Of a DNA stretch of 64,000 bases, positions 5,929-22,575 are shown in pieces. Made by a program: the position numbers and the translations under genes. Each line of letters begins with the position of its first letter. Position 1 is the first letter of the stretch. The notes under the pieces are model-generated. The model was not told the DNA's origin, searched no databases, and saw only the letters and a list, made by a program, of their open reading frames with translations. The stretch is from an uncultured Clostridia bacterium (GTDB lineage Bacteria > Bacillota > Clostridia > TANB77 > CAG-508): NCBI GenBank assembly GCA_944392105.1, contig CALXVM010000007.1:3624-67623 (forward strand). The letters are read 5' to 3'.

Positions 5929-6029
5929 ATACTTTCCTCCACAAAAATTTATTTTAAATAATAATTCTAAAAGACTATATTTTTACTTTATTTCTTACAA
6001 AGTTAACCTATTAATGTATATTATAACAT

Positions 6030-6066
6030 AAAAAATCGTTAGAATATATATTCCAACGATTTTTTT
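6030..6066 (-). terminator. hairpin terminator
   Basis: AAAAAATCGTTAGAATAT / ATATTCCAACGATTTTTT inverted repeat with flanking A/T runs (bidirectional shape), downstream of ORF 6132..7487. Confidence 0.6.
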
Positions 6067-6131
6067 AATGTGTCTATTGCTTTTAATAATGAAGTCTAGC
6101 TTTTAAATTTTTATGTTTTTTAATTTATATC

Positions 6132-7487
6132 TTATTTTTCAAAAGACATTACAAAGTCTGTTCCTTCTAGTAATTTTACTACAAATTGCTTTTCTATTGT
6201 TTGTGTAGAATCTTCGCTATTTGTAATTACCATTTTATAAATATACAAGTCACCATTTTTTTCATATGATGTATATCCTAATTTGTTATATGCATAAAAT
6301 GTTGTTTTCATATAGTTTTCAAAGTCTACTTGTGTAGGGAAATTATTATTTCTATAAGTTTGGTCTAGTTTGTTGTAAGCATATGCATAGTCACCGTCAT
6401 TTATTGCATCAAAGAATTTTTGTATATTGAATTGTACTTTTTTCTCATCTGTTGAAGAATTGTATTGTTCAACAAATTCTGGCAAGTCTATTGTATATGT
6501 GTCTAATATAATTCCATAGTCCATTACTGCATTTTCTTTAAATATATAATATTTTCCATTTTGATCTAAACATACATATAATGTATATCCATCATTTGAT
6601 GTTATTTTTTGATATTGATTTAATTCTAATAAAACATTTTTTCTTACATTATTTTTAGCATAATTTTGAAATTCTTCTAAGTTAGTAAACTTTTTAGTCT
6701 TATATTCATTATCTAAATGCTCATATGCTAACTCTGTATTATATAATATTTCTTCTTTATATTTGCTAATTAAATCAACACAATATGTTTCATCCGTAAT
6801 ATTTTGATAGTCGTATACATTATTAGAATTTTTTTCTATATTAACATTCTCACTTGCATTAAATTCTTCACCTATTGAAATAGCTGGATATTTTTCATCT
6901 ATATAGTCTTGTAAAAATATAGAAAAGACTCTATTTAGTGCATCAACTTCAATCATCATTTTAAAATTAGATATATTACTGGTTATTTTTTCTCTAACGG
7001 TTCCCTCTACAATATATATTGATGTATCTACAGTTCTCTGACTCACATACATTTTATTTATGTTAATAACCACCTCATTAATCGGATTTAGCTTTGATAT
7101 AATATCAGAACTTGTTGTAATTCCTGCATATTCTTTATAATCGTTATCTAGCATATCGTATATTACTTGTGCATATTCTAGCTGTATTTCTTTTATACTT
7201 TCCTTTGCATCTTCATCCATAATATAAACATCACCTTCTAAGGTATTCATACTATAATAATAAGTATAAAATTTATTTACAGCATTTTTAACTATATAAT
7301 AGTTGTTTCTGTTTGTAACCTCTTTTAATGTAGTATCTACATCGTAAGATATGTCACTTCCTTCTTCGTCAACTCCGTGTAAAATTTTTGCACTACTTTT
7401 AGTAAAAAATAATATAAAAATTAAAATTGCAATAATAACAATTACTAATATAGTTAAAATTATAATCCATTTTTTTAAATTTTTCAT
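6132..7487 (-). CDS. N-terminally anchored extracytoplasmic protein of the T4SS-like cluster
   Basis: Single N-terminal TM (IIILTILVIVIIAILIFILFF). Contains the motif FFDAINDGDYAYAYNKLD, which resembles NTF2-like/SnoaL-like lipoprotein domains. Confidence 0.5.
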   Translation of the reverse strand: MKNLKKWIIILTILVIVIIAILIFILFFTKSSAKILHGVDEEGSDISYDVDTTLKEVTNRNNYYIVKNAVNKFYTYYYSMNTLEGDVYIMDEDAKESIKEIQLEYAQVIYDMLDNDYKEYAGITTSSDIISKLNPINEVVININKMYVSQRTVDTSIYIVEGTVREKITSNISNFKMMIEVDALNRVFSIFLQDYIDEKYPAISIGEEFNASENVNIEKNSNNVYDYQNITDETYCVDLISKYKEEILYNTELAYEHLDNEYKTKKFTNLEEFQNYAKNNVRKNVLLELNQYQKITSNDGYTLYVCLDQNGKYYIFKENAVMDYGIILDTYTIDLPEFVEQYNSSTDEKKVQFNIQKFFDAINDGDYAYAYNKLDQTYRNNNFPTQVDFENYMKTTFYAYNKLGYTSYEKNGDLYIYKMVITNSEDSTQTIEKQFVVKLLEGTDFVMSFEK

Positions 7488-7569: not shown

Positions 7570-10500
7570 TTATGGTGCTCTTAATCCAAATAGTAATCCA
7601 CTTAGACTTTTGTTCTGTGGTGAAGAACTTCTTATTGCATTACCGCTTCCTGCATTATATACAGTTCCATCTCCTGCATAAATTTCAATATGACCAGAAT
7701 AACATAATATATCTCCTGGCTGTAATTCTGATACATTATCTATTCTCTTAAATCCTTTGCTTAATAATAAACTCCTTAAGTTATTTGCTCCATCAAGATG
7801 TTCAGAATCGCTAATATATCCTGCTTCTTGCAATACCCATGATACATAAGTTGCACAGCAACTATTATGATATCCTGTTTTTGATGCTTCAAAAGTTGCA
7901 TTTAAACCATGTGCTTTTCCATATTTTCCACATTCTTCATAACTATTTCCCCCATATACACAATATGTATAGTTATTCTCTTCCATATATTTATGTATCA
8001 TATCTGCTATTTCAATAATGGCTCCGCCTTCTGCATGCCATTTATCTAAAACATCATAATATCCTGTTTGGAATAATGTCCATTCAGATTTTCTCCTTCT
8101 TTCTAAGCCCTCTAAATGTTGTCCTTCCGATGTAGTAGGCTTTGACATGTATTGAGTATATAAACTATGGTTAAAATTTGCATTTTTGTCTTGTGCTTCG
8201 AATAAATCATCAGTTTCTGCATTCCAATATTTTTGATATGATTGAACAAAGTTTAGTACAGGCGAGCCTCTCTTTACAGTAATAGCTCCAGCGGTTCCAC
8301 AGTTATAAGCCCTAGATACTAAAGCATTTATTTGGTATTCTTTTAATCCTAATCCACTGGTTGCCGCTTTTATAGCATCTGACTGACTCTTTATCTCCTG
8401 TTTTTCCAAGCTGTCAACAAAATCTTTATCAACTTCTCCGCCTATTTCAGTTGGATATCCTGATGCAATAAATAAATCTGCATATCCTCCATTGAAAATA
8501 TCTATACCATATCCTACTGTTGGATGTCCCATACCATCATCATGTATAATATATTTAGTTCCATCAGCATTCATTGGTGCTCCAGAGCCATTTTCCCAAT
8601 AATGTATGTATTCTACTAATAATTGACTACTTGTCGCACTACTAAAATTACTTTGTGCAAACAGACTTAAATTAAATTCTGTAACTCCATAGCTTTTGCC
8701 TGTATATTTATACAATACATATCTCATTATGTTTTCCATAGCTTGTGTTGTTGAACTTCTTGATAAAAATTCAAAATAAGCCACCGAATTACTTACTAAA
8801 TCTGGTCCCGCTGAACGAGTATTCATTGAATTTGGTATTCTAAATCTTTTGTCTAATAATCCTACAAAAGTACCTTCTTCGCCCTTTTCTCCACCATTAT
8901 ATTCCTCTTTTGGTGTATCTTCTGAATACGTAACTCCAGATGATTCTATATCTACAATTACTCTATCCACACCAGAACCAGTATCACTATGTGAATATGT
9001 TGACCCTAAGTTTGTCTGTTTAAATCCGGCTTCTCTACTAAATATCCATGTTTTAGCTGTTGATATCATTATTGATGGAGTATAACTTTCTTGCGTTGTT
9101 ACTGTAGTATCCGGAACCAATTCTTGGACAGTTTCATTTCCAACCGTCTTTTCTTCATAATGGTATGTCGTAGTTGTTGTTACTTCCCTACTTGAATTAT
9201 ACATAACATTTAATGTAATTCTACTGTCTTTTACCATTTCAACAAATGCTTCCATAAATTTAGGATTTTGTACAGCCATGGCTGTGTCCACGAAAAACAT
9301 ACATGATGTTGTATATTGTGATATCATACTTTTATAATCAACATGCTGGATTGTTAAATCAGGTGTACCATTTGTATAGTTAAAATTAATAAGCATTAAT
9401 TTTCCATTTTCATCTATAGAATAGTATTTTCTTAGTTCATTAAAACTTCCACCATTTTTAACAAGTGTTTCAAAATCAGTCTTTTTCTTAAATATCATAG
9501 GTTCTAATTCTTTTTCATGTTCTAAGACAGTATATTTTCCTAATGAATCACCTAATTTGCATTTATCTCCAAAAATATTTAACATGTGTTGCTTTACTAA
9601 GTCGCTCCAACCTGCAGTTGTGCAATATAAAGGTCCTATACCATCAAGAGTTGTTGGATCTCTCCCCTCTCCTGTAATTCTTTCATATCTCCATGTACCA
9701 GGGGTTGTCCATTCTTGCTTTAAGCTTGTTGCTACCTCTTCAATTCCTTTGCTTATGCCTTCTTTTATTTCTTCTGAAGAAAAATCTATTGCAGATTCTC
9801 CTGGACTAGAATCATAAGCTCCCCAGCCCCATAAATTTAACTTTTCATTTGCTATGTTTGAAGTTCCATATCCACTCTCATGTGTTCCAATTGCTACTAT
9901 TACCATTGGGTTTATTCCTGCTGCAGTACATATATCATAAAATTCTTCTGCATTATCTTTAAAAAATTTATCATAGCAAGTCCAATTATTTCTCATACTT
10001 TCGCCAAATCCAATAGGAGGTATATAACTTTTAACAGCATTTACAAAGTCTTCTTTAGAAATGATAGGATTATCGGCATCCCACAATATTGAATAATCTG
10101 GATATTTAGTAACCGTATCCTCTGAAATCTTAGGTGTCATCATATAGACACTACCATTTGAACCAGTTACCCCAGTATTAATAGTCTGCGTAGTTTGCTG
10201 AGCTTCTAAAAATAGTTTTATATATTTTCTCTCTGCTTCTTTTATTTCCTCTTCTGATGCAGTTTCATAATCTATATCTCCTAATAAGCCTAAATCTTCT
10301 GCTGATAAATCATACTGTTCCTTTAATTGCTCCAAGACTTTATCTACTTCTTCATCTTTTATCTCATAAGCACCATTTTCTAGATTAATTGTAAAAAAGT
10401 TTGCTATATCTTCAAATAGTCCTTGGAAAAAATCTACAACTAATGAAATTAGAGCATAAAAGAGCATAGCTAAAAGTAATATTGGTATGACAGGTATTAA

Positions 10501-10620
10501 AAACTTTAATAAATGTTTTAATGCTTTTTTTGCTCCTGATTTTCCAGCTTTTTTTACTTGGTCTGTCATAGTAGATTTTTTTTGTTCATTATTTTCATTA
10601 TTATTTTTTTCGTCTGCCAA
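7570..10620 (-). CDS. three-module cell-wall hydrolase (GH73-like glucosaminidase + lysozyme-like + NlpC/P60-CHAP-like peptidase), VirB1/PrgK/TcpG analogue
   Basis: N-terminal TM. IGTHESGYGTSNIA..NLWGWGAYD (GH73-like). YWENGSG..HPTVGYGIDI (phage-lysozyme-like). C-terminal NSCCATYVSWVL ... GDILCYSGHIEIYAGDG (Cys/His papain-like peptidase). Confidence 0.75.
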   Translation of the reverse strand: MADEKNNNENNEQKKSTMTDQVKKAGKSGAKKALKHLLKFLIPVIPILLLAMLFYALISLVVDFFQGLFEDIANFFTINLENGAYEIKDEEVDKVLEQLKEQYDLSAEDLGLLGDIDYETASEEEIKEAERKYIKLFLEAQQTTQTINTGVTGSNGSVYMMTPKISEDTVTKYPDYSILWDADNPIISKEDFVNAVKSYIPPIGFGESMRNNWTCYDKFFKDNAEEFYDICTAAGINPMVIVAIGTHESGYGTSNIANEKLNLWGWGAYDSSPGESAIDFSSEEIKEGISKGIEEVATSLKQEWTTPGTWRYERITGEGRDPTTLDGIGPLYCTTAGWSDLVKQHMLNIFGDKCKLGDSLGKYTVLEHEKELEPMIFKKKTDFETLVKNGGSFNELRKYYSIDENGKLMLINFNYTNGTPDLTIQHVDYKSMISQYTTSCMFFVDTAMAVQNPKFMEAFVEMVKDSRITLNVMYNSSREVTTTTTYHYEEKTVGNETVQELVPDTTVTTQESYTPSIMISTAKTWIFSREAGFKQTNLGSTYSHSDTGSGVDRVIVDIESSGVTYSEDTPKEEYNGGEKGEEGTFVGLLDKRFRIPNSMNTRSAGPDLVSNSVAYFEFLSRSSTTQAMENIMRYVLYKYTGKSYGVTEFNLSLFAQSNFSSATSSQLLVEYIHYWENGSGAPMNADGTKYIIHDDGMGHPTVGYGIDIFNGGYADLFIASGYPTEIGGEVDKDFVDSLEKQEIKSQSDAIKAATSGLGLKEYQINALVSRAYNCGTAGAITVKRGSPVLNFVQSYQKYWNAETDDLFEAQDKNANFNHSLYTQYMSKPTTSEGQHLEGLERRRKSEWTLFQTGYYDVLDKWHAEGGAIIEIADMIHKYMEENNYTYCVYGGNSYEECGKYGKAHGLNATFEASKTGYHNSCCATYVSWVLQEAGYISDSEHLDGANNLRSLLLSKGFKRIDNVSELQPGDILCYSGHIEIYAGDGTVYNAGSGNAIRSSSPQNKSLSGLLFGLRAP

Positions 10621-10644: not shown

Positions 10645-11610
10645 TTATATTTTTATATCCATTTGTATTTTTTGTAAATTTTCGTCATTTGGATTATTTA
10701 TATATGCATTGTAATCTAAATAAATATTTTTAAATCTTATATATCTAGCACTAGTACTTGAATTATATCCTTTTGCAAATCTAATTGTAAATTTTTTCTG
10801 TTCTACTCTATTTATAATTAAATTAAATTGAGGTATTTCATTCAAATATGAAATATATTCACTATCATGTTCATCTACTAAGCATATTTGCTTATTGTCA
10901 CTATTATCTGAAAGTAAAATAGTATTTTCGCTATTATTAGTTATAGTAAACGAATATACAACATAATCCATATAAATATCTTGTCTAGTCACTTTAATTT
11001 CCACATTATTTTCATTTTCAGTTTTTTCGGTGTCATAACTATTAATAAAGTTATATATACTTAATTTATCTTCACCATTTTCTCTAGTTATAGTAATATA
11101 GTCTGTATAATTTAAGCCTTCTGATATACCTCCTGTTGCTAAAATATTATCTTCTAAATATGTTACTTTATATGTTTGCCCTTCAGCCTTGCTTATCCAT
11201 CCTTCTAATTGATATGTCTTGCTAGTTTGAAATATTAAATCACAATAATTTTTAACAAAACTATCCATTGTTCCACTAAAGACTATATTTTTGCAATCAT
11301 CTGTAAGCATATTATAAGCTATTGCATAGTCTTTGCTATTACAAGCTTTTACAAAGCTTTCTATTATATTTTTATCTTCTTCCGCATCTTCTTTTGATAT
11401 TTCGTCTCCAGAAATTATCGTTTCTTCTGGAAGTGTAGTATCTCTATATCCTTCACTGTAACTGTTGGACACATTATTTCTTTCTTCCTGTATATTGGTT
11501 TTGATAATATAGTTAAGTACTCTTACAAATATAATAAGAAAGACTATAATTGAGACAATTAATAGTATTTTAGTCCTATTTTGATTAAAGTATCTAATTA
11601 ATTTTCTCAT
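10645..11610 (-). CDS. N-terminally anchored protein, possible VirB8/TcpC-like component
   Basis: Single N-terminal TM. FVKACNSKDYAIAYNMLTDDCKN (NTF2-like motif). Beta-rich C-terminal domain. The VirB8 role is inferred from position between the VirB6-like and hydrolase genes. Confidence 0.4.
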   Translation of the reverse strand: MRKLIRYFNQNRTKILLIVSIIVFLIIFVRVLNYIIKTNIQEERNNVSNSYSEGYRDTTLPEETIISGDEISKEDAEEDKNIIESFVKACNSKDYAIAYNMLTDDCKNIVFSGTMDSFVKNYCDLIFQTSKTYQLEGWISKAEGQTYKVTYLEDNILATGGISEGLNYTDYITITRENGEDKLSIYNFINSYDTEKTENENNVEIKVTRQDIYMDYVVYSFTITNNSENTILLSDNSDNKQICLVDEHDSEYISYLNEIPQFNLIINRVEQKKFTIRFAKGYNSSTSARYIRFKNIYLDYNAYINNPNDENLQKIQMDIKI

Positions 11611-11638: not shown

Positions 11639-14263
11639 TTAATTTACTTTTTTAAGTTTTTTAACATATTTCATCATATTTTCTGCTTCTCTTCTAGCTT
11701 GTGTTTGATTTATTCCGTTTTCTGGACTTAGCATTCCTCTTGCCCAAGATTGGGTTACTTGTTCTACATATTTCTCATCTACTAATTTCTTATCATCTAC
11801 TCTTTCTGCAAATTGAGCTGCTATCATTGCTCTTTTCTTAGCTGCATCTGCTTTTTCTTGATCTGTCATTCCTTCAACATTTTGTAAGTCTTTTGCAACA
11901 GTTTTCTCAAGTTTCATTGCTTTTACTATCTTCTTTTCATCTGTTATTCCTGCTTCTGTGTAATCTATAGATTTTGCAAGTAATTCTTTCTTTTCTTTTG
12001 CTGTTCTCTCATGACCATCGTCTGTAGGAATTAAATCATTTAATCTATTCATCCTATCTTTGTCTTTCATAAGTGTTCTTCTTTGTTCTGCTAATTGTGC
12101 TGCATTTAATCCATGTGCTCCAACATTATATGTATCTCTTATTCCAGAAGCACCTTCTGCTATTGAGCTTCCAAATCCTGTAACTGCATCATATCCCAAA
12201 GTAGAACCTAGTCCTGCACCTGCTGCTCCAAATTTAACAATATCATTAAGGTCATCTCCAGCAATACCTGCTGCAATACCAACACTTGCTCCAAGTGCTC
12301 CCAATGCTGCTCTTCCTGCCACTCTTGGAGCTGCATGTAAGCCTTTCTTTCCAAGATCTGCTAAAACTGCTCCTGCACCACGTACGCTATTTTTTAATGG
12401 TTGTACTGCACCTACTGAATTAATCTTTGCTGCCATTCTACCTAAACCACTATCGCTAACACCATTAGCAATTTTACGAACTTTATTTGCTCCTTCATTT
12501 TTTAGCCTTATAGCTCCTTTTCCCACAGCAGTATTACCTAATCTGCTCATTGCTGCACTTCCTTTAGCGCCTATCCAGTCTCTTGTATATTGCCCTAATC
12601 CTCTTGTATCTCTTGGTCTAGTTGATGCAGAAGCTTGTGTTCCGCTTGAACTTGAGCTCGTACTTGTTGAACTTGCACTGCTTCGAGGTATTGGAGTGCT
12701 ATATATTATACCTGATGGTGTTGACGACATTCCTGGTGGTATTGAACCTGAATTTCCATTTGCTCCACCCATTGCTCCTCCACCAGAAGGACTTGAAGTA
12801 GGCGTTCCTCCAAGAAGAACCGGTCCACTAGAACCTCCTCCAGTATTATCTGAGCCACTAGCACCAGCAATTCTAGAATCTGCGAAATCTCCTAATCCTG
12901 GTGCATTATTATCTTCTATACTACCAGCATTTTGAGTTCTAATTTTGTTATTTCCTCCTGAACTACCAGAACCACCTTTCTTTCTATGTGCTGCACTTCC
13001 TATAAGTTTCTGTGTTAAACTCATAGCCGCTGCACCACCTGCAAATGACCCAAGAGAACCAGCTGAACTTGCTTTATCAAATCCGAAGAATTTTCTTAAC
13101 ATTTTTTCAGATTGTGAAATAGATGCTAATACTATAATTGCATATATTGGATTTTCTGCTGATAAATCAACAACTGCCGAGCCAGCAAATACTGTATAAA
13201 TTATTAAATGGAATGGTTGTATTAATGCATTATACACATATTCTTTAAGCCATGAATTAAATCCTTGTGCACTTCCATCTCCTATTTTATCTATAGGGTA
13301 TGTAAGAGCTATAAGAGGTGCTATTATGGTTAAAAATGCCATTGTTAAAGACCTCTTTAGATATGTTATTGTAAACATTACTGTATATATTACCATGGCT
13401 ATATATATAATAAAGTATAACACTTTTGTTCCTAAGTCATCATATTGTACCAAAAATCTTGCATACCCCATTATGTCTGTATTAAATTTAAACTTTGCAT
13501 TATCTGCTGTAGCATTTTTAGCTGCATCTGCATCTCCATCAACTACAATAACTGGTATATTATTAGTTCCTTGTGATGGATTTTCACCAGCAATTGCTTC
13601 TGTAATTGAATTTACAACAGTTACTGTAAATGTCATTATATAGTGCAATGTAAATAATAAGCATAATGCTATTAGCCAATCTTTTAAAAATTCTTTATAC
13701 TTTGCTTTGTCAGATGCTGTACTTGAAACTATTATTCTTATACCTACATATAACAAAATAATAAGCATTCCTACAATGGCCAAGTTTCTTAAAGCAACAT
13801 ACCATTTTGCTATAGTATCATGTAATATTACTGCTATAGATTTATTATTTTTTGCATTCAGCTTATCTTTCGTTTCCTGAGCTTCTGCTCTAGCTTCTTC
13901 TGAGGCATTAGAATCTTTTAACATAGCGTCTGCAGCATCTAACTGTCTTTGTTCTTCTTCGCTTAATGTCTCTGACCAATCTTTTGGATCTATAAAGTTA
14001 ACGTCAAATGCTGGTACAGCTCCTGAAAATATTTTTTCTGGGCTATACCTTGTAAAAGGCACTTTTACATCTCCGTCTCCTCCTATACCATTTAACAATT
14101 CTATACCAAATGATTTAGATTCTGCCATTGCATTATCAGTATTATATGCCGCATCGTTTAGCTCTGGTCTATCTGTATTTTCTCCCCCTGTAAACGGTGC
14201 TTGATTCCATTCTACTAGCACTATATCAAAAAAATTTCCGCCCATCTGGAGTAAATTCCCCAT
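11639..14263 (-). CDS. VirB6/TrbL-like polytopic T4SS membrane protein, main fragment (frameshifted from 14226..14456)
   Basis: Six or more hydrophobic helices (residues ~160-400), then a G/S/A/P-rich low-complexity tail and a charged C-terminus. The annotated ATG 14263 has no SD and is immediately preceded by an in-frame TAG. Confidence 0.7.
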   Translation of the reverse strand: MGNLLQMGGNFFDIVLVEWNQAPFTGGENTDRPELNDAAYNTDNAMAESKSFGIELLNGIGGDGDVKVPFTRYSPEKIFSGAVPAFDVNFIDPKDWSETLSEEEQRQLDAADAMLKDSNASEEARAEAQETKDKLNAKNNKSIAVILHDTIAKWYVALRNLAIVGMLIILLYVGIRIIVSSTASDKAKYKEFLKDWLIALCLLFTLHYIMTFTVTVVNSITEAIAGENPSQGTNNIPVIVVDGDADAAKNATADNAKFKFNTDIMGYARFLVQYDDLGTKVLYFIIYIAMVIYTVMFTITYLKRSLTMAFLTIIAPLIALTYPIDKIGDGSAQGFNSWLKEYVYNALIQPFHLIIYTVFAGSAVVDLSAENPIYAIIVLASISQSEKMLRKFFGFDKASSAGSLGSFAGGAAAMSLTQKLIGSAAHRKKGGSGSSGGNNKIRTQNAGSIEDNNAPGLGDFADSRIAGASGSDNTGGGSSGPVLLGGTPTSSPSGGGAMGGANGNSGSIPPGMSSTPSGIIYSTPIPRSSASSTSTSSSSSGTQASASTRPRDTRGLGQYTRDWIGAKGSAAMSRLGNTAVGKGAIRLKNEGANKVRKIANGVSDSGLGRMAAKINSVGAVQPLKNSVRGAGAVLADLGKKGLHAAPRVAGRAALGALGASVGIAAGIAGDDLNDIVKFGAAGAGLGSTLGYDAVTGFGSSIAEGASGIRDTYNVGAHGLNAAQLAEQRRTLMKDKDRMNRLNDLIPTDDGHERTAKEKKELLAKSIDYTEAGITDEKKIVKAMKLEKTVAKDLQNVEGMTDQEKADAAKKRAMIAAQFAERVDDKKLVDEKYVEQVTQSWARGMLSPENGINQTQARREAENMMKYVKKLKKVN

Positions 14264-14456
14264 CTACCAAAAAAGCATTTAATCCTGCTAGTATAACATC
14301 TCCGATGCTAGAAAGTAAGTCGAAAATAGGTCCAAGTAATACTCCACCCACGTCTGCTTGTACTCTCGTTGGAACAGAAAAAGTAAACAATAGCATAATT
14401 ACAATTGCAATAATAACTTTTTGTATGAAGTTCTTATTTGTAAATATTTTTTTCAT
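14226..14456 (-). CDS. N-terminal signal/TM fragment of the VirB6-like protein
   Basis: Strong RBS AGGAGG 5 nt upstream of ATG 14456. MKKIF..LLFTFSVPTRVQA signal-like sequence. Ends in the T7 tract (A7 on plus, 14228-14234), where a 1-nt deletion would fuse it to ORF 11639..14263. Confidence 0.6.
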   Translation of the reverse strand: MKKIFTNKNFIQKVIIAIVIMLLFTFSVPTRVQADVGGVLLGPIFDLLSSIGDVILAGLNAFLVDGEFTPDGRKFF

Positions 14457-14465
14457 CTTTTCCTC

Positions 14466-16454
14466 CTAATAATTGTAGTTGCTAACCTGCCTTCTTTTGT
14501 TCCTTTCTACTAATGTGTTTAAGTTTGTATCCACAAATTCAAATTCTTTATTTGTAGGGTTTATTTGTATTATAGCACTATCTGCGCCTACTTTCAATAA
14601 TCCTTCTCCTTTAAAACAAGTTACTAAGAAACCTGCTTCACCTTCACTTAGTTTAAATACTTCTTTTAAATATTGTATTTCAGATTTATCTTGTGCTAGA
14701 AACAACTTAGTATCTGAGGATGTAAGAACAGCTTGTGCTTCTGGTTTCTCATAAAAGTCTTGAAATCTTTGAGAAATAATTGCTAAAGATACATTTCTTT
14801 TTCTAGCACGTCTTGCCATTGTATTTAAGAAGTCTACGGCTTCTGGGTATGGAAGTAACATCCAAGCCTCATCGACAATTACTCTTTTCTTTGATGCTCT
14901 TTCTCTATCTTCACTATTCTTTTTAACATATTTTTCCCATATCCATGCTAGTAATATTTGTTGAGCAAGTGGTCTTGCAAATCTTTCCTCTAATTGAGAT
15001 ATATCTAGATTTATAAATAATGTTCCGTCTAATAAATCAAATGTAGATTGTCCGTCAAAATATGCCATTTGTCCGTCATATTCTCTTATATATTGTTTCA
15101 TAACTTTTAACAAATAACTATAATGGAAACTATAGTCTGGGTTCTTATTTTCTTCTGCTTTTCTTTGTATTCTTCTATACCAAGAACCTATTGTTGGCAT
15201 TTCTTTCTTTTCTCTTCCAAGCATATTTCCATCAACATTGCCAGCCGACGTTTTATATAAGCTGTTTGGATCTCCATTTATTCCTAGACTTGCATATTCT
15301 TCTGAAACAGATTCTGCAATAATTTGTTTTGTAAGCTCGTTAACTTCTTGGCTTCTTGTACTACCTCTTGCCATTGTAAGTAAAGCTTGTGTTACGTCCT
15401 CTACCTTATTTTCTACATTTAAAACTAGTCTTTCTCTACCTGTTATTTCGTCTTTTACAATTTCTGTTTCCAAATCGAATATATTTATAACTGTTGATGA
15501 TGTTGGCGAAAGTACGACATTTATTCCTCCTAAGCTTTCAGCAACTATGCTATACTCACCTTCTGCATCTAGTGCCAAACTTTGTATTCCCATAAGAACT
15601 GCTGACCTTGAAATTAATGTTTTCATAGTAACAGACTTACCAGCACCAGACTTAGCAAATATAACCATGTTATAGTTTGTTAAACTGCTATGGAAGTTAT
15701 CAAATAAAATAGGTACTCCTGTTTGTTTGTTTATTCCTAACGGTATTCCTGTTGGATGTCCTACTTCTGATGTAGTAAATGGGAAAACTGTTCCCATAGA
15801 TCTACGGTCAAATGTATGTGTTTTTCTTATTTTGTCTTCCATTAATGGAAGGTTTGATTTAAATGCATCTTCTTGCATTCCCCATGCTGTTTTTATTCCT
15901 ACTAATGATTTTGCAACTTCTGTAGATAATAGTTTTGTATATTTATTTAAATCATCTAAACTATATGCAAATAATGTTGATATAATAGAAGCTTCATATA
16001 ATTTGTTGTAACCTGCTGCAATTTCATCTCTTAATTGCTCTGCTTCCATTCTTTTCTGTGCCAAACTACTCTCTCTATTTATATTTCCTCTATCTGCTGC
16101 AACAATTCTTTCTGTTTCTAACTCATTTATTGTTCTATTTAAATCGTTTTGTGACTTTGACTCCAAGATTGGATTTATGTATATAGATGTATTAATATCT
16201 CCAAACATGTACATATCTCTAAATAATTCTGGGAATGTACACATTCTAGGTAGTGCAGATACAAAGAAGCTTCTAGCATATCTAGTAACATTAGATATAA
16301 TTTCTAAGTGGTCTATGTTACTAGCATCTATTCCAGATGGAGCAATAAGTTCTTTTATAGTTTTCTTCTTTAAAATTTCATATTCGTCTGGTTTTGTATA
16401 ATCATTATGTTGTACTTGTAAATCATTTGTTTGAAGTTTGTTCTTTTTGCTCAT
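14466..16454 (-). CDS. virB4: VirB4-family T4SS ATPase
   Basis: Walker A KSGAGKSV, Walker B VIVDEAWML. 662 aa. N-terminal region typical of Gram-positive VirB4/PrgJ/Orf16-like proteins. Confidence 0.85.
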   Translation of the reverse strand: MSKKNKLQTNDLQVQHNDYTKPDEYEILKKKTIKELIAPSGIDASNIDHLEIISNVTRYARSFFVSALPRMCTFPELFRDMYMFGDINTSIYINPILESKSQNDLNRTINELETERIVAADRGNINRESSLAQKRMEAEQLRDEIAAGYNKLYEASIISTLFAYSLDDLNKYTKLLSTEVAKSLVGIKTAWGMQEDAFKSNLPLMEDKIRKTHTFDRRSMGTVFPFTTSEVGHPTGIPLGINKQTGVPILFDNFHSSLTNYNMVIFAKSGAGKSVTMKTLISRSAVLMGIQSLALDAEGEYSIVAESLGGINVVLSPTSSTVINIFDLETEIVKDEITGRERLVLNVENKVEDVTQALLTMARGSTRSQEVNELTKQIIAESVSEEYASLGINGDPNSLYKTSAGNVDGNMLGREKKEMPTIGSWYRRIQRKAEENKNPDYSFHYSYLLKVMKQYIREYDGQMAYFDGQSTFDLLDGTLFINLDISQLEERFARPLAQQILLAWIWEKYVKKNSEDRERASKKRVIVDEAWMLLPYPEAVDFLNTMARRARKRNVSLAIISQRFQDFYEKPEAQAVLTSSDTKLFLAQDKSEIQYLKEVFKLSEGEAGFLVTCFKGEGLLKVGADSAIIQINPTNKEFEFVDTNLNTLVERNKRRQVSNYNY

Positions 16455-17643
16455 TCTCTTTTGTACCTCCTTCTTCTTTTCTTGGTCTTCCTTTTCTTTT
16501 TGCTCGTTCTTCTTTTATAATGTCTTTTGCATCATCTGCTACTTTGTTTCCTATAGATGCTCTGTTTTCATCTATTATCAATTGTGCCATTTGTTCTATT
16601 AAATCATTCATTCGATTCTGCTTTCTTTCAAGAGCTTTTTGCCTTTTAGATTTAGCCTCAACAACTGCTTCGTTTGCTTTATTAAATGCCTCTTGTTCTA
16701 TTTTTGTATCTAACGCTCTCATCTTTTTGTCTAGTACATCTGGTGCTGTTGAATATAATTCGTCATAGCCAGCTCTTAATGCTTTATCTAATCCATATAC
16801 TTCTGCATCATCTCTGTTATATGCAACATATAGCAAATCTACTAATCCATTTGAATCCAGTATTTTAGTATTTATACCACAAACTGATAATGTTCTCATA
16901 ATAGATTGCGCTCTTGTATATAATTCTGAAAATGCTAAGTTTTTCTTCTCGTCTTTATCAAAATCATTTTGTCCTAGTTCTGATGTATAATATGGAATAA
17001 CAATATAATATTTTTTATTAAGTACATTTTTGTTTAAACTCATTCTTTCTGTTGTGTAGATTATATCTTTACCATATTCACAAAGGTTAGTTTGTTTAGT
17101 TAACTCATAGTAGGCTTGGTCTAATTGTTGTCTTGAATATTTTCCAGAGTCGACCATATTCTGATATTGCATTTTTTGTCTTTCTAATCTATCATCTAAT
17201 TCTTTAACCTTTTCTTTATATGTTTGTATACTATTTTCTAAGTTTATTGTTCTTGTTTGTGTATATATCTGTATAGGATGTCTTAATGTGTTTAAGAATT
17301 GTATAAAGCCTTCTTCTACTGCATTTTTTTCTACTTCTGACATTAAGTCATAGTTTACACCTTGGCACTCCACAACCATTATATATCTCTCACCATTTTT
17401 TTGTGAAATCATATTGTCTTCTACTTTATCAAAGTCCATAAAGTCAAATACAGATTCCACAGTATAAGTTTTTCTTGATTCTTTTTTTACATTACTATTG
17501 GTTGTAGGTGTTTTAGCTTGTTCTTCTTTTTTTTCTTTTGATTTAGAAGAAAAATATACAGCTGCTAATATTACTAGTAATAGTAAGAAAATTCCTAAAG
17601 CAACTGCTAATATTATTGTAATTGTATTTATATCATTTAGCAT
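16423..17643 (-). CDS. bitopic membrane protein of the T4SS-like cluster (unknown role)
   Basis: N-terminal TM (ITIILAVALGIFLLLLVILAAVYF), coiled-coil and basic C-terminus. Overlaps virB4 by 32 nt and the prgI-like gene by 11 nt. Confidence 0.5.
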   Translation of the reverse strand: MLNDINTITIILAVALGIFLLLLVILAAVYFSSKSKEKKEEQAKTPTTNSNVKKESRKTYTVESVFDFMDFDKVEDNMISQKNGERYIMVVECQGVNYDLMSEVEKNAVEEGFIQFLNTLRHPIQIYTQTRTINLENSIQTYKEKVKELDDRLERQKMQYQNMVDSGKYSRQQLDQAYYELTKQTNLCEYGKDIIYTTERMSLNKNVLNKKYYIVIPYYTSELGQNDFDKDEKKNLAFSELYTRAQSIMRTLSVCGINTKILDSNGLVDLLYVAYNRDDAEVYGLDKALRAGYDELYSTAPDVLDKKMRALDTKIEQEAFNKANEAVVEAKSKRQKALERKQNRMNDLIEQMAQLIIDENRASIGNKVADDAKDIIKEERAKRKGRPRKEEGGTKENEQKEQTSNK

Positions 17644-17980
17644 TGTTCTTTCCCTCCTTATACACGTATATTTTACTTCCTTTTGTCTTAAACATTATTG
17701 CCCTCTTTATAATGTCGTCTAGGTTTTCTCCTCCAACTTTTTTAGTAAAATTTAGTCCTGAGATTTCTGGCATTTTAAGTGTTCCTATAGCAAAACCTAC
17801 TAAAGCAAGTAAAGCTGTTATTACAATTCCTACAATATTTAATTCAACAAGTGAAAATATGCCATAAAAAATTAGCCCTATTCCTCCACCTACAATTGCA
17901 TATATAAAGCTTTTTCCTGTAAATACAAATAGAATTCTACCTTCACCTTTTACATTTCTGGGTAAATTATATGTTCCCAT
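17633..17980 (-). CDS. PrgI-family (VirB3-like) T4SS membrane protein
   Basis: 115 aa. YNLPRNVKGEGRILFVFTGKSF then two TM helices. Matches the PrgI family pattern and sits directly upstream of virB4. Confidence 0.7.
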   Translation of the reverse strand: MGTYNLPRNVKGEGRILFVFTGKSFIYAIVGGGIGLIFYGIFSLVELNIVGIVITALLALVGFAIGTLKMPEISGLNFTKKVGGENLDDIIKRAIMFKTKGSKIYVYKEGKNNAK

Positions 17981-18060
17981 AATTTCCTCCTTCGTATAAC
18001 TAATTATACTTAATATTAATTATAGCAAATTATGTAGAAAAAAGGTAGATAAAAAATAAA

Positions 18061-18085
18061 AAAAAGTGCATTGTAATGCACTTTT
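18061..18085 (-). terminator. terminator/attenuator between the pilin genes and prgI-virB4
   Basis: AAAAGTGCATT-GTA-ATGCACTTTT hairpin followed on the minus strand by TTTTTTTTATTTTTT. Confidence 0.7.
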
Positions 18086-18116
18086 AATATATTTGTAATC
18101 TTGTTGTAATATATTA

Positions 18117-18497
18117 TTAATTTTGTCCTGTTGTCTCGCCTGCTTGTTTAGCTATACTGTATACAACTTGTGCTATAGCAGATGCACCAAATACTAGTAC
18201 TGCACCAACTAAGTATGGTATCATTGTTTTCTTGTATTCTGCTTTTTCTTCTGCACTACCAATCATGTATTTAATACCTAATACAAGTAATACTATAACA
18301 GATACAGCCATACCAATACCAGTTAACCAACCAATAATTGTATTAACAAGTCCTTGTCCTTCTCCTAAATCAGCTTCTCCCCCAAGATCTCCTGGTTGTA
18401 ATGCAAAAGCTGCATTAGCTACTGATAAAAACATACATACCATTAATATTACGCAGAATATTTTTACAATTGCATTTTTCTTTGCTGTTTTGCTCAT
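18117..18497 (-). CDS. VirB2/TrbC-like T4SS pilin paralog 1
   Basis: Signal-like N-terminus, then TGIGMAVSVIVLLVLGIKYMIGSAEEKAEYKKTMIPYLVGAVLVFGAS (two TM helices with a charged loop). Confidence 0.65.
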   Translation of the reverse strand: MSKTAKKNAIVKIFCVILMVCMFLSVANAAFALQPGDLGGEADLGEGQGLVNTIIGWLTGIGMAVSVIVLLVLGIKYMIGSAEEKAEYKKTMIPYLVGAVLVFGASAIAQVVYSIAKQAGETTGQN

Positions 18498-18568
18498 TTA
18501 TTTTCCTCCCTTTTTATTCTATATTTTTTATCTTTGTTTTAATTAAGATAATTATAATATCAAATTTA

Positions 18569-18967
18569 TTATATACCTCTTAGTATTGTAACTACTAGTT
18601 TCCATATTCCAAATGCTCCAAATACCACTACACATCCTACAATATATGGTATCAAAGCATCTTTTACTTTTGCTTTTTGTTCTACACTTCCAGTCATAAA
18701 CTGCATTCCAAGTATCATACCTATTATTAATGCAAGTACTAATCCAACAAAAAATAATATATTGTATAAATCATTTGTTAGTTCCTGAGTTTTATCTGAT
18801 GTTATAGGCGATTCTTGTCCTTCTCCATCTTTAATAAAACTTGAGCCTCCATCTATAATTCCACTAACACTTTGGTCCCCAGTAGCAAGTACAATATTGG
18901 TTGAAGAAAAAATAATTAAAAAAAGCAACAATGTTAATATTATGTTTTTTAAAAAACTTTTTTTCAT
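18569..18967 (-). CDS. VirB2/TrbC-like T4SS pilin paralog 2 (divergent)
   Basis: Same architecture. VGLVLALIIGMILGMQFMTGSVEQKAKVKDALIPYIVGCVVVFGAFG. Confidence 0.6.
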   Translation of the reverse strand: MKKSFLKNIILTLLLFLIIFSSTNIVLATGDQSVSGIIDGGSSFIKDGEGQESPITSDKTQELTNDLYNILFFVGLVLALIIGMILGMQFMTGSVEQKAKVKDALIPYIVGCVVVFGAFGIWKLVVTILRGI

Positions 18968-19010
18968 ATTATTCCTCCTTATATTAATATACTATATCAT
19001 AATTCTATTT

Positions 19011-19400
19011 TCAAGTAGTTGGGAATAATTCATTAGTAAATTGCATAATTACTGATACTATAGTAGATATTGCAAATACCAAGAATGCTCCTATTAAGTA
19101 AGGAAGCATACTTTTTTTATATTCTGCTCTTTCTTCTATACTTCCAACCATATATTTTATACCTAATACAACTAATGTTATAACAGAAACTGCCATCCCT
19201 ATTCCTGTAATATATCCTATAATCGGCTTTACCTTATCTATAGCAGTCTGTGTATCCTCAGTAGTTAGTGTAGGTGGTTTCTTTATAGTACTAGGATCTA
19301 ATGTTCCTTGTCCATACACCCCAGATAAACTAAACAAAAACATGCAACATATAAGTAATAATATTATTCTATTAACTAGCTTTTTTGTATTGTTACTCAT
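19011..19400 (-). CDS. VirB2/TrbC-like T4SS pilin paralog 3
   Basis: TGIGMAVSVITLVVLGIKYMVGSIEERAEYKKSMLPYLIGAFLVFAIS, close paralog of 18117..18497. Confidence 0.65.
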   Translation of the reverse strand: MSNNTKKLVNRIILLLICCMFLFSLSGVYGQGTLDPSTIKKPPTLTTEDTQTAIDKVKPIIGYITGIGMAVSVITLVVLGIKYMVGSIEERAEYKKSMLPYLIGAFLVFAISTIVSVIMQFTNELFPTT

Positions 19401-19497
19401 AACTACTCCTTTTAAGTGTATTATTTATATGATAGCATACTTTTTTTTATTTTTCTACATATTTTTTTAATTTGTAATAAAAATGTAAAAAAAATAA

Positions 19498-19555
19498 AGG
19501 TTTATTATTTTTTATATGTGCTTAACATTCGTACAATATAAAAAATAATAAACCT
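19498..19555 (-). terminator. long-stem terminator after the Spo0E-like gene
   Basis: 18-bp perfect inverted repeat AGGTTTATTATTTTTTAT / ATAAAAAATAATAAACCT with a 22-nt loop, then a T-run on the minus strand. Confidence 0.6.
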
Positions 19556-19581
19556 ATTTTATATGTATTTCCCTAATATTT

Positions 19582-19788
19582 TTATTTTTCTTTAAACAAT
19601 TCTTGTATCTCTTTTATACTTTTTCTCTTCTTCTTTGGTTTTGGCTTTAGTGTTATTGTTGTTCTGTAGTATTTTGCAATTAATTCGTCTAATTCTACGC
19701 TTATTTTATATGTAATGCTGTAATCGTCGTTATTGATTATACTTTCGTTTAGTTTTTCTCTTAATCTACAAATCTCATCATTTAACAT
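19582..19788 (-). CDS. Spo0E-family aspartyl-phosphate phosphatase-like protein
   Basis: Start moved to MLNDEICRLREKL (AAGGAGAG 7 nt upstream). ISVELDELIAKYY matches the Spo0E SQELDxLI-type helix. Confidence 0.6.
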   Translation of the reverse strand: MLNDEICRLREKLNESIINNDDYSITYKISVELDELIAKYYRTTITLKPKPKKKRKSIKEIQELFKEK

Positions 19789-20005
19789 ATAATCACTCTC
19801 CTTTTTATGCAATTTTCATTTTGTACATATTAAAAATACCATATTTTTACATATAAGTCAACGAATTTTCCCATTATTAGCAGGTTTTTGCATAATTTTC
19901 GAGTGACTTTTTATTCTATTTTTTTACTTTTTTCGACATTAAGTGATTTTTGATTACAGCATACATAAAAATCCCTAAAAATATGATGAAAATAGCTAAA
20001 GAATT

Positions 20006-21280
20006 TTATTTAGGATTTACTATTGATAATATTTCATTTTTCTCATTAAATACTTCTTTTAAAATGCCTTCTGTATATTCTTTTGTTACTGTATTAAATT
20101 CTTCTATATAGTCAAAGCTATTTATTCCTTTCATTTTATCTGCTAAAAACATTCTAGCAATATCTGCAACACTATTATATTCTATAGCGTAGTCTCCATA
20201 TATTTTCTTTTTTATTCTTTTAAAATGTTCTTCATCCAAGCCATTTTTAATATATTTTTCAACTTGTTTTGTTATTTCTTCATATATTTTTCTTGGATTT
20301 TTAGACTGTCCATATATTGTAACATGTGCGTATTCATTATTAAATTCGTAGTCAAAATTTGGCTCACTAAGTAAAATGTTTTCTTCATATAATTTCTTAT
20401 ATAATTCGGAACTTTTTCCTATTAACATGTTTAATATAATTTCAATAGCAATATGTCTTTTTACTAAATTTTCCTTGTTCTTTGTAGCATCTTTGTATCC
20501 CACAAGAAATAGCGGATTACTTAATTCCATTTTGACTTCCGTTTCTTTCTTATTTATTTCTGTTTCTTCTTTAGCATATATTCTTTTTATTTCTCCTTGA
20601 TTTTCTTTTGGAACTGACCTTTTCTTTATCTCATTTAGTAGCTTTTCTGGTTCAAAGTCACCACAAACTACCATTGTCATGTTAGATGGATTATAAAATG
20701 TATTATAACATTTGTATAACACGTCTGGAGTTATTTTACTTATTGATTCTACTGTTCCTGCAATATCTATCTTTATTGGATTTTCTTTGTACATACAATC
20801 CATTGCATTTATATAAAGTTGCCAACTTGGGTCATCGTCATACATTCCAATTTCTTGACCTATTATTCCTTTTTCTTTTTCTACATTTTCTTCTGTAAAA
20901 TATGGATGTTGTACATAATCCATTAACTCATCTAATCCTTCATAAAAGTTGTCTGTACATTCAAACAAATATGCAGTATGGTCATTAGATGTATATGCAT
21001 TTGCATCAATGCCAAGTGCCATTAAGATGTCTAAACTGTTAGTTCCGTTAGGCTGTTCGAACATTTTGTGTTCCAAAAAATGTGCTACTCCGTCTGGTAT
21101 ATATACTTCTTCTCCAGTTGTTGGCATTATAAAATGATTATCTATAGAACCAAAATGTGTTCCCCATATTACATATTTTTTTATAGCATTTTTCTTAGGT
21201 ATTATTATTACGTCCATACCATTTTCTAATTTTTCTATATATGCTTTTTCTTTTATCTTTGAACTTTCAATTATTTTCAT
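20006..21280 (-). CDS. M16-family (insulinase/pitrilysin) zinc peptidase
   Basis: HFLEH (HxxEH) zinc motif. Start moved to MKIIESS after GGAG. Confidence 0.8.
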   Translation of the reverse strand: MKIIESSKIKEKAYIEKLENGMDVIIIPKKNAIKKYVIWGTHFGSIDNHFIMPTTGEEVYIPDGVAHFLEHKMFEQPNGTNSLDILMALGIDANAYTSNDHTAYLFECTDNFYEGLDELMDYVQHPYFTEENVEKEKGIIGQEIGMYDDDPSWQLYINAMDCMYKENPIKIDIAGTVESISKITPDVLYKCYNTFYNPSNMTMVVCGDFEPEKLLNEIKKRSVPKENQGEIKRIYAKEETEINKKETEVKMELSNPLFLVGYKDATKNKENLVKRHIAIEIILNMLIGKSSELYKKLYEENILLSEPNFDYEFNNEYAHVTIYGQSKNPRKIYEEITKQVEKYIKNGLDEEHFKRIKKKIYGDYAIEYNSVADIARMFLADKMKGINSFDYIEEFNTVTKEYTEGILKEVFNEKNEILSIVNPK

Positions 21281-21312
21281 TAGATTTTCTCCTTCCGTAA
21301 GCAATATACTTC

Positions 21313-22575
21313 TTAGTTTTTCAAAAAATAAATTGTATTAATATTAATTTTATTTGCTATTTCTATAATTTGCTCTCTTGTGGTATTTTGTATTTTTTCT
21401 TCATATTCTTTTATTGTTATATGTTCACCTGATAATTCTTGTCCATAATCATATGTTATTTCTGTATCTTGTTCTGCCGAAATACTTTTTATACTTGAAA
21501 TGATTAATTTTTTAGAATCTTCTACGTCTTCGTCTGTAAAGTTTCCTTTTTTCATATCTTCTAGCTGTTCTTTTATAGTTTCTAAAGCTTTTTTATACTT
21601 GTCTATGTCTATTCCGCAATGAATTAATATAATATTTTTAGTTCTTATATAGCTTGAACTTGCAGTATATGCTAAACTATTTTTTTCTCTTACATTTTGG
21701 AATAATTTAGAGTTTGCTCCTCCACCTAAAACAGCATTATATACAGAGGCTGCAAATCTTGAGTCTTTGTTATTATCATTTATTTGCAGACCTAAGACTA
21801 ATTTTCCCTGAGTTATATCCATACTATCTTCAATTATTTTAGGTTGTTCTATATTTTTCTTTTCTGTTGTTTCATTATTTACTATATATTCTGCTTTTCT
21901 TGATTCAATTTTATTTTCTTGTAATTTCTTATTTATTATTTCTTCTGTTTTATTATCATTAAATAGCCCCGAATAATAAATATCAATTTTGCAATTTTGT
22001 ATTAATTTTTTATAATATTCATATAAGCTCTCAGGAGTTATGTTTTCCAAATCTTCAATATAACCATATTTATATAGCCCATATGGTTCACCCTTAAATA
22101 TTTCTTCTATGCATCTATCTAAAGCATATCTTGATTTATTATCTATTTTACCATTTATAATTTGTTTTAAGTTTTCTTTTTCACTGTCTACGTATTCTTT
22201 CTTAAAACCATTATTTTCTATTAAAGGATTTGTTACTATGTCTAACAAAATATTTATACATTTTTGTGTTAGTTCTTCTTTCTCTGGTAAAAATTCTTCA
22301 TTTAAAGCTTCTAAATAAAATTTTATAATATGATTATCCCCTGTTTTTTCTATTCCGCAATCAAAACTTGCTCCATACATTTCTTCTAGCTCTTTACTAA
22401 TTTTGTCTTGAGATGGAATAGACATAGTTCCTCTTCTTAATACAGCTGCAATTAAAGCGTCTTTTGTGACATTTTCTCTACTTAGCGGAGTTGCTAAGAA
22501 AACTGCATACAAATTGGTTTTAAACTGATTGGTTTCTATTTTATGAATTTTTATTCCTTCCATATTAAATTTCAA
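21313..22575 (-). CDS. M16-family peptidase-like protein (non-catalytic partner, no HxxEH seen)
   Basis: Paired with the downstream M16 gene as in ymfF/ymfH-type operons. Similar length and fold-typical pattern. Confidence 0.7.
   Translation of the reverse strand: MKFNMEGIKIHKIETNQFKTNLYAVFLATPLSRENVTKDALIAAVLRRGTMSIPSQDKISKELEEMYGASFDCGIEKTGDNHIIKFYLEALNEEFLPEKEELTQKCINILLDIVTNPLIENNGFKKEYVDSEKENLKQIINGKIDNKSRYALDRCIEEIFKGEPYGLYKYGYIEDLENITPESLYEYYKKLIQNCKIDIYYSGLFNDNKTEEIINKKLQENKIESRKAEYIVNNETTEKKNIEQPKIIEDSMDITQGKLVLGLQINDNNKDSRFAASVYNAVLGGGANSKLFQNVREKNSLAYTASSSYIRTKNIILIHCGIDIDKYKKALETIKEQLEDMKKGNFTDEDVEDSKKLIISSIKSISAEQDTEITYDYGQELSGEHITIKEYEEKIQNTTREQIIEIANKININTIYFLKN

Follow-up and report, generated by a model that had tools for sequence, protein, structure and literature searches.

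The window analysed here, a 64,000-nucleotide stretch of DNA from an uncultured Clostridia bacterium, carries three tandem genes for small membrane proteins (P1, P2 and P3) that lie next to genes for the machinery of a type IV secretion system (T4SS). The three adjacent minus-strand open reading frames (ORFs) of 129, 132 and 126 aa are present exactly as the original prediction had claimed, and each is preceded by a strong Shine-Dalgarno sequence. The proposed paralogy is borne out by pairwise BLASTP, in which all three pairs match (P1 with P3, E = 8e-33; P3 with P2, 40% identity across the core, E = 6e-17; P1 with P2, 27% identity, E = 3e-12). The description of P1 and P3 as nearly identical is somewhat overstated, the overall identity being 44%, although by a hand count on the alignment the two-helix core agrees at roughly 80%. 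A common layout of a signal-like N terminus, a variable segment and two hydrophobic helices connected by a charged loop (GSxEEKAEYKK) had also been proposed and is seen in all three proteins, with the variable segment shorter than the 40–60 aa suggested, at about 20–35 aa in the mature proteins. Each N terminus, as read from the sequence, has a lysine-rich n-region, a hydrophobic h-region and a small-residue motif (VANA/AF in P3, VYG/QG in P1 and VLA/TG in P2, the slash marking the cleavage site predicted from the motif), and the signal peptides are predicted to be of the Sec type. The coordinates of these genes and of the other features of the locus are given in Table 1.

Table 1. Features of the T4SS locus and its surroundings, with positions in the window
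Feature	Position	Strand	Description
Pilin paralogue 1, P1 (position A)	19011..19400	-	129 aa; predicted signal peptide cleavage after VYG30
Pilin paralogue 2, P2 (position B, divergent)	18569..18967	-	132 aa; predicted cleavage after VLA28
Pilin paralogue 3, P3 (position C, best conserved)	18117..18497	-	126 aa; predicted cleavage after ANA29
Intrinsic terminator	18052..18085	-	10-bp stem, 4-nt loop, U-tract
Extended -10 promoter-like element	18019..18027	-	TGCTATAAT; putatively serves the prgI-virB4 operon
Promoter-like element upstream of P1	19429..19457	-	TGCTATCAT; TAGAAA-17-TATCAT with TG, from a consensus scan; putative function
PrgI/VirB3-like membrane protein	17633..17980	-	115 aa; PF12666
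TrsD-like bitopic protein	16423..17643	-	406 aa; remotely similar to the N-terminal part of VirB4
VirB4 ATPase	14466..16454	-	662 aa; NF045971, NF045975, Pfam TraG P-loop, AAA_10, DUF87
VirB6-like polytopic protein	11639..14456	-	Pilin-like N-terminal module, long G/S-rich tail; two ORFs here (76 aa, 874 aa)
Bitopic protein	10645..11610	-	321 aa; transmembrane anchor, NTF2-like domain and beta-sandwich (AlphaFold2 model)
Membrane-anchored multi-domain peptidoglycan hydrolase	7570..10620	-	1016 aa; Pfam; putative VirB1-like role
Two further conserved locus genes	4576..7487	-	451 aa bitopic, 450 aa acidic; syntenic in relatives
M16 peptidases	20006..22575		Flanking housekeeping genes

Family assignment of the three paralogues

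At the Pfam gathering cut-offs (26.6 bits for PF18895, T4SS_pilin, and 27.9 bits for PF04956, TrbC/VirB2) all three proteins belong to both families, with scores for PF18895 and PF04956, respectively, of 45.7 and 34.8 bits for P1, 37.3 and 31.6 bits for P2, and 41.0 and 50.1 bits for P3, and with matches that span almost the entire models. This profile hidden Markov model check upholds the VirB2/TrbC-like assignment made in the original prediction. Both families are carried by the top 120 of 3272 homologous protein clusters, and one JGI record among the homologues is already named VirB2 pilin; against NCBIfam, P1–P3 gave sub-threshold matches to a pilin-like protein of a Mycoplasma integrative and conjugative element (ICE). 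A further PF18895 match, on contig C6 of the same genome, proved to be a RodA/FtsW protein and was set aside as spurious.

An AlphaFold2 model of P3 based on 117 homologues (predicted local distance difference test score, pLDDT, 82) contains helices at residues 3–31, 44–79 and 82–124, which we read as a signal helix followed by a helix-turn-helix hairpin (44–79/82–124). A Foldseek search with this model gave no significant match in the PDB (best E = 2.4), and since a fold as simple as a two-helix hairpin has no discriminating power, the result neither supports nor refutes the pilin assignment. When a profile of the 117 homologues was compared with PDB sequences, the R388 pilin TrwL (8s6h) was found at a borderline E of 0.05 over positions 50–117, and the top matches were designed helical repeat proteins that we judged spurious. 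Because the Foldseek search was not significant and TrwL reached only this borderline value, we base the assignment, which is well supported, on the Pfam scores and the genomic context and not on structure.

The same observations bear on whether P1–P3 might belong to some other kind of small membrane protein (holin-like, immunity or scaffold proteins, for instance) and owe their VirB2-like layout to composition alone. Two-helix hydrophobic proteins do yield low-complexity-like matches, and both the designed repeats at the top of the profile search and the Foldseek result would be in keeping with such mimicry. Set against this, P1, P2 and P3 each score above the cut-offs of two independent curated Pfam models, with matches that cover nearly the whole of each model, the genes are linked to those for VirB4, PrgI and VirB6-like proteins across five families, and the N terminus of the VirB6-like protein bears the same pilin-like module (residues 149–207, PF18895 21.6 bits). 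A search of PHROGs found no phage family match for the pilins, on which ground the holin or phage reading was rejected. We therefore regard mimicry by unrelated proteins as extremely improbable.

Terminator, promoter-like elements and machine genes

The strong hairpin and U-tract that had been placed between the pilin genes and prgI-virB4 are real and follow the last pilin gene directly. On the minus strand the hairpin occupies 18085–18062 and is followed by U8-A-U6; the surrounding 81-nt region folds at −14.9 kcal/mol (z = −5.7), and none of 200 shuffled sequences folds as well. All 75 related loci have a hairpin with a T-tract 3' of the last pilin gene, whereas the same scan at other gene ends detected one after neither of the other two pilin genes (0/70 and 0/68), after prgI and the TrsD-like gene once each (1/79 in both cases) and never after virB4 (0/77). 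Among 45 distinct terminator sequences of the GTGCAT type, the outer stem pair is always matched (35 G-C, 10 A-T), and the inner pair is T-A in 32, C-G in 10, A-T in one and mismatched in two; more distant species have wholly different stems at the same position. Because the position is conserved and the changes in the stem are compensatory, we conclude that the hairpin is a selected intrinsic terminator.

The extended −10 promoter-like element of Table 1 lies about 40 nt ahead of the prgI start. In 55 of 65 loci its consensus, TGnTATAAT, stands in the spacer that separates prgI from the terminator; of the control segments, two of 65 upstream regions and three of 65 coding stretches of 1.6 kb contain it (3–5%). 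The hairpin had been called an attenuator; it is well founded as a conserved terminator, and with the conserved TGnTATAAT that follows it, "terminator plus restart promoter" fits the evidence better. The succession of a terminator and a conserved extended −10 element gives the pilin genes and the machine genes the appearance of two separate transcription units. The simplest reading would be one operon for the pilins, closed by the terminator, and a second for the machine under a promoter of its own, with partial read-through possible.

Upstream of P1 a promoter-like element is also present (Table 1). In many relatives (loci L033–L057) the region corresponding to about 19460–19545 of the window holds three or four copies of TTACA at intervals of about 11 nt and then TTGAAA-17-TATAAT; the window retains the first promoter-like element alone, the second having seemingly been lost. 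In many loci TTACA also supplies the −35 region of the prgI promoter, and these motifs might represent an array of operators for one shared regulator. An Rfam scan of 17500–20000 found no known RNA family, and therefore no riboswitch or known leader.

The machine genes begin with prgI, which stands directly 3' of the pilin genes in 79 of 80 species loci and 11 of 14 distant loci (the samples are described below). The TrsD-like protein weakly matches positions 88–348 of the NCBIfam model NF045975 (VirB4_plasma), and TrsD has been published as remotely homologous to the VirB4 N terminus (PMC12102498), a description that the 406-aa protein fits. That this ORF might be the frameshifted N terminus of VirB4 was considered and rejected, given this fit and its presence as a separate gene in all relatives that have the locus. 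For VirB4 itself the best NCBIfam models are NF045971 (CD1110-type, 201 bits) and NF045975 (Mycoplasma ICE, 184 bits), scores far below the equivalog cut-offs of 325 and 590 bits. The VirB6-like protein matches NF045848 and NF045889, models of Mycoplasma ICE transmembrane proteins. Its gene is cut from the part encoding its signal/transmembrane N terminus at window positions 14226–14263; most relatives have one ORF, and a small ORF with a shortened gene occurs in about 10 of the 80 species, so that the split may be a recurring or programmed feature as opposed to an isolated assembly error.

The AlphaFold2 model of the 321-aa bitopic protein (pLDDT 91) resembles NTF2-like folds and 4les/YjhA sandwiches in Foldseek, and no solved VirB8-family structure is among its top matches; from this model the protein is a possible VirB8 analogue or pilus-associated protein. 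The 1016-aa hydrolase contains a Phage_lysozyme domain above the Pfam cut-off, a Glucosaminidase domain just below it and weak CHAP and NlpC/P60 matches. The 451-aa and 450-aa proteins have no Pfam or PHROG family match, and past their genes lies one for a dacB-type carboxypeptidase, while a Spo0E-like gene and two M16 peptidase genes lie upstream of the pilin genes. Equivalents of VirB5, VirB7, VirB9, VirB10 and VirB11 were not identified among the locus genes analysed.

Distribution, chromosomal fixation and age of the array

Scanning one genome per species yielded more than 580 VirB4 relatives, and the best 80 (81–90% identity) were analysed. These 80 loci come from metagenome-assembled genomes from human, rabbit, mouse and deer guts that are labelled "uncultured Clostridia" or "Clostridium sp. 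CAG:780 / CAG:575". The gene order M16b, M16a, Spo0E, three pilins, PrgI, TrsD-like, VirB4, VirB6-like, 321-aa protein, hydrolase is kept in nearly all loci of sufficient length, with the M16 peptidases and Spo0E flanking one side throughout the 80 species and dacB the other side wherever it is reached. More distantly, 14 loci were sampled from five families of the same order, and in 11 of them the order pilins (2–5 copies), PrgI, TrsD-like, VirB4, VirB6-like is retained; in family f4 the pilin array shares a contig with a gene for a VirB4 of 74% identity that lies 7–8 kb away. The homologue of the 321-aa protein directly adjoins the pilin array in two of the three f4 loci sampled.

Every one of the 151 genomes of the order, all 136 high-quality ones included, has PF18895 matches (1–16 per genome), and all 28 genera are represented; in the rest of the phylum the family was found in 28 of 300 genomes, nearly always as a single copy. 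The genomes of this order, which to judge from CAG-named genomes and genome traits is probably GTDB TANB77, are small (0.9–2.2 Mb). Omp85/BamA was absent from all 21 relatives searched, whereas all seven diderm control genomes scored, and the hosts are therefore monoderms, as had been assumed.

This distribution is central to whether the genes simply belong to a conjugative element of the usual sort, either an ICE or a plasmid integrated into the chromosome, of the Gram-positive mating-pair formation (MPF) class MPF-FATA, and serve to form mating pairs for DNA transfer. The best NCBIfam models for VirB4 are indeed of conjugation type, the genome has a VirD4-type coupling protein, a PF03432 relaxase (one, at C5:8300) and a second T4SS-like module with a single VirB2-like gene, and the sporadic single-copy PF18895 matches in about 9% of other genomes of the phylum are what mobile elements would produce. 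However, the locus has the same housekeeping flanks in about 80 species and is found in every genome of the order, no integrase or relaxase was identified among its genes, and base composition reveals no island boundary. Relaxases of PF03432, the only relaxase family searched (MOBV, MOBT and others were not), occur in 10 of 41 relatives belonging to only two of nine genera and are unlinked to the locus. The VirB4 scores fall far short of equivalog level, and VirB4 is more conserved than the neighbouring housekeeping genes (see below). The linked relaxase and coupling protein, the boundaries and the patchy distribution of an MPF-FATA element are thus not seen here, with PF03432 as the relaxase family covered, and we consider a conjugative element very unlikely. 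The conjugation-type framing of the original prediction gives way to that of a vertically inherited chromosomal locus, as the synteny across 80 species and the presence in 151 of 151 genomes indicate.

The second module, on contig C2 of the same genome (78620–81832, locus L006), encodes a P-loop ATPase of at least 442 aa, a 292-aa polytopic protein, a 99-aa membrane protein and a single 120-aa VirB2-like protein with a signal peptide, whose PF18895 score of 23.9 bits is below the cut-off. A second, distant VirB4-like gene (25–27% identity, about 590–630 aa) was found in five of six genomes of the order that were checked, with an internal TAA in two.

Rates of change differ widely across the locus. 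The median identity of species orthologues to the proteins of the window is 86% for VirB4, 62% for PrgI, 61% for the TrsD-like protein, 45–50% for the pilins, 40% for the VirB6-like protein and 30–35% for the bitopic proteins and the hydrolase, compared with 61% and 72% for the two M16 peptidases. VirB4 is thus better conserved between species than the adjacent peptidases, an uncommon pattern for a secretion ATPase that points to very strong purifying selection on the motor; as judged from these identities, the predicted envelope-exposed parts of the locus evolve fast and the motor is strongly constrained. The original prediction had proposed a comparison of copy number and variable-region diversity in relatives. 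Within the pilins the lowest mean pairwise identities are in the exposed N-terminal segment (0.21–0.26) and the C-terminal tail (0.15–0.24). The inter-helix loop is the best conserved part of P1 (0.73) and P3 (0.85, from 57 orthologues) and is not the best conserved part of P2 (0.55). A single lysine is invariant in 117 of 117 aligned pilin sequences.

Some species have an enlarged pilin paralogue of 270–417 aa, in which a domain of 150–340 aa has been added at the N- or C-terminal end. The pilin module is C-terminal, behind a long extension, in L070:4015-5268, L086:4293-5318, L112:4220-5248, L097:4550-5542 and L095:3968-4948, the N-terminal extensions of 230–340 aa having no Pfam match; in L041:5032-5844 the pilin module is N-terminal and is followed by a collagen-like tail. 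In the solved pili of the VirB2 family both termini of the subunit lie on the outside. By analogy, both termini of the present pilins would be external, a topology with which extensions at either end are consistent.

In a maximum-likelihood tree of 99 pilin sequences, those of position B form a clade with 100/100 support and those of position A a clade with 96/96 support that is nested within position C. The array positions are therefore orthologous, and the triplication predates the divergence of these species. The triplication had been put down to either a heteropolymeric fibre or antigenic variants; the positional orthology speaks against recent antigenic variants and favours three specialised subunit classes. 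It argues for classes that have been maintained, as opposed to recent duplicates or cassettes for antigenic switching.

Relation to known systems and proposed role

Chromosomal T4SSs with VirB2-like arrays were reportedly described in Patescibacteria by Wang et al. in 2023. That Gram-positive T4SSs are usually described without VirB2, as the original prediction had stated, agrees with recent reviews: monoderm T4SS classes yielded no pilin homologues (Guglielmini et al. 2014, PMC4027160), the Gram-positive classes are said to be without virB2 (Quinonero-Coronel et al. 2025, PMC12102498), and a FEMS review of December 2025 names the Patescibacteria as the sole exception (PMC12857230). These bacteria have been called unique among monoderms in their potential for conjugative-type pili (PMC12857230, PMC12102498, PMC4027160). 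A pilin-bearing T4SS in a monoderm is consequently not unprecedented, as the Patescibacteria have the same arrangement and databases already tag the present proteins as VirB2-like. The Patescibacteria systems are chromosomal and mostly relaxase-less, with a VirB4 related to MPF-FATA, TrsD, PrgI, VirB6, arrays of 2–11 VirB2 genes averaging 25% identity and a coupling protein that is usually unlinked (PMC12102498), and in Southlakia epibionticum an array of six pilin genes is essential (PMC12857230).

The T4SS of Patescibacteria (Ca. Southlakia epibionticum ML1, Ca. Nanosynbacter lyticus TM7x), compared through its published description, is the closest analogue of the present locus. The two have in common a monoderm host with a reduced genome, a chromosomal locus near-universal in its lineage with no relaxase in the cluster, tandem divergent VirB2-like genes detected by PF18895 and PF04956, adjacent PrgI/VirB3, TrsD-like, VirB4 and VirB6 genes, and a VirD4-type coupling protein encoded elsewhere; the three genes at 27–44% identity lie within the published array size of 2–11 divergent copies. 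Unlike Patescibacteria, the present host is a true clostridial lineage (with a Spo0E-like gene, dacB and a large wall hydrolase). Within the genus the array comprises a fixed set of three orthologous classes, and sister families have additional copies; the locus also includes a three-module VirB1-like hydrolase and NTF2-like bitopic proteins.

With the Gram-negative VirB2/TrbC/TraA pilins (Agrobacterium VirB2, R388 TrwL, RP4 TrbC) the three proteins share the Pfam family, a long signal peptide, two hydrophobic helices with a charged loop and adjacent VirB3- and VirB4-type genes; they differ from these systems in the lack of an outer membrane and in having three paralogues instead of one, and no cyclase or acetylase partner was identified here. 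Several sequence-variable pilin copies in a non-conjugative T4SS are also a feature of Bartonella Trw, where the VirB2 and VirB5 copies have been proposed to form variant surface pili for attachment (PMC12857230). However, the Trw copies are lineage-specific amplifications in a diderm pathogen whose system is without a coupling protein, whereas the copies described here are old orthologous classes and the coupling protein is conserved. The conserved "pilin" reported for TANB77 belongs to a Tad-type cluster with TadZ/CpaE, CpaF, TadB/C and type IV-like pilins (Kim et al. 2024, PMC11680825), which resembles the present locus as an order-wide conserved appendage locus, probably in the same order, with several pilin-like genes in a row. 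It is nevertheless a different machine, the T4SS locus being a second, separate appendage system, and T4SS, VirB2 and PF18895 are nowhere mentioned in that paper. Our literature search found no paper that reports this locus in Clostridia, and a full-text search for PF18895 returned the Patescibacteria paper and one unrelated structural survey only. The locus is a new lineage-level case of a relaxase-less chromosomal monoderm T4SS with VirB2 arrays, and the gap lies in the literature, not in the annotation.

Taken together, these data lead us to read P1–P3 as three old, specialised pilin classes of the VirB2/TrbC superfamily, encoded in their own terminator-ended operon at the head of a domesticated, vertically inherited, relaxase-less MPF-FATA-like T4SS that is universal in the order, a reading to which we assign a probability of about 0.8. 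Each precursor would be inserted by Sec and cut by signal peptidase I after the small-residue motif, giving a mature subunit of 97–104 aa with two membrane helices, the conserved Lys/Glu loop in the cytoplasm and the hypervariable N and C termini facing outward. The VirB4 ATPase and the platform of PrgI/VirB3, TrsD-like and VirB6-like proteins would draw subunits from this membrane pool and build a wall-spanning tube or pilus with the variable ends at the surface, the multi-domain hydrolase opening the wall. A separate promoter and terminator would allow transcription of the pilin genes to differ in level from that of the machine genes, and presumably to exceed it.

A number of points weigh against this reading. 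Beside the Foldseek result, PF12666 matches the PrgI/VirB3-like protein at 23.6 bits, under its 27-bit cut-off, and our naming of the order as TANB77 is presumptive. Export, cleavage and polymerisation of the pilins are predicted from sequence, as are the pilin-to-machine expression asymmetry and the efficiency of the terminator; similarly, we infer the heteromeric use of the three classes, the expression ratio and what the system transports. Instead of a fibre, the subunits might just as well build a short channel, by analogy with Gram-negative VirB2, which is needed for secretion even without a pilus (PMC12857230). A functional coupling protein is also uncertain in this genome because its gene, at C2:9409-11482 among prfA, sbcCD-like genes, ddl, murF, recR and dnaX, consists of two overlapping ORFs of 157 and 540 aa broken within Walker A (GTT GGA CGG T TCT GGT TCT GGT AAA TCT). 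Reading CGGT as one step restores VVG-x-SGSGKS. In several same-genus relatives the open frame is about 530–541 aa, and in others the gene is intact at 684–704 aa.

The coupling protein is also relevant to the idea of an inward-working system for DNA or nutrient uptake, similar to Helicobacter ComB or archaeal Ced, in which the pilins would form the uptake conduit. A relaxase-less chromosomal locus with equivalents of VirB2, VirB3, VirB4 and VirB6 matches the ComB part list (PMC12857230), VirB4 has faint matches to CedB and CedD models, and hosts with such reduced genomes may need imported building blocks. Yet a VirD4-type coupling protein, absent from ComB, is present in 41 of 41 relatives (unlinked, on a contig other than that of the pilin locus in nearly all, reading as broken in this genome, and thus a putative partner of the locus), and the Ced matches are weak, with E values of 1e-4 to 6e-6 and scores far below cut-off. 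One Patescibacteria model is viable without ComEC transformation while its T4SS is essential (PMC12857230), a finding that does not bear directly on import by the T4SS. The direction of transport cannot be read from sequence; we judge an uptake system to be improbable.

For the lineage as a whole, a secretion machine under strong constraint with fast-evolving, putatively exposed parts suggests an important function in cell contact. The hosts are abundant, uncultured gut bacteria, and TANB77, if this is indeed their order, has been linked to the response to cancer immunotherapy (PMC11680825). A lineage of Clostridia with an order-universal VirB2-type T4SS contradicts the reviews, up to December 2025, in which Patescibacteria are the sole exception, and it bears on the origin of the Patescibacteria pilins, since whether the monoderm-derived T4SS of that group already carried VirB2-like pilins was left open (PMC12102498). 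A bolder proposal, drawn by analogy and in our estimate doubtful, is that the whole uncultured order (probably TANB77) depends on its domesticated T4SS and a heteromeric, three-class VirB2-type pilus for obligatory contact or exchange with other cells, as Patescibacteria appear to. If this were true, such obligatory contact or exchange would help to explain the resistance of these bacteria to cultivation, and these Clostridia would be a candidate source or sister lineage of the pilin-bearing T4SS of Patescibacteria.

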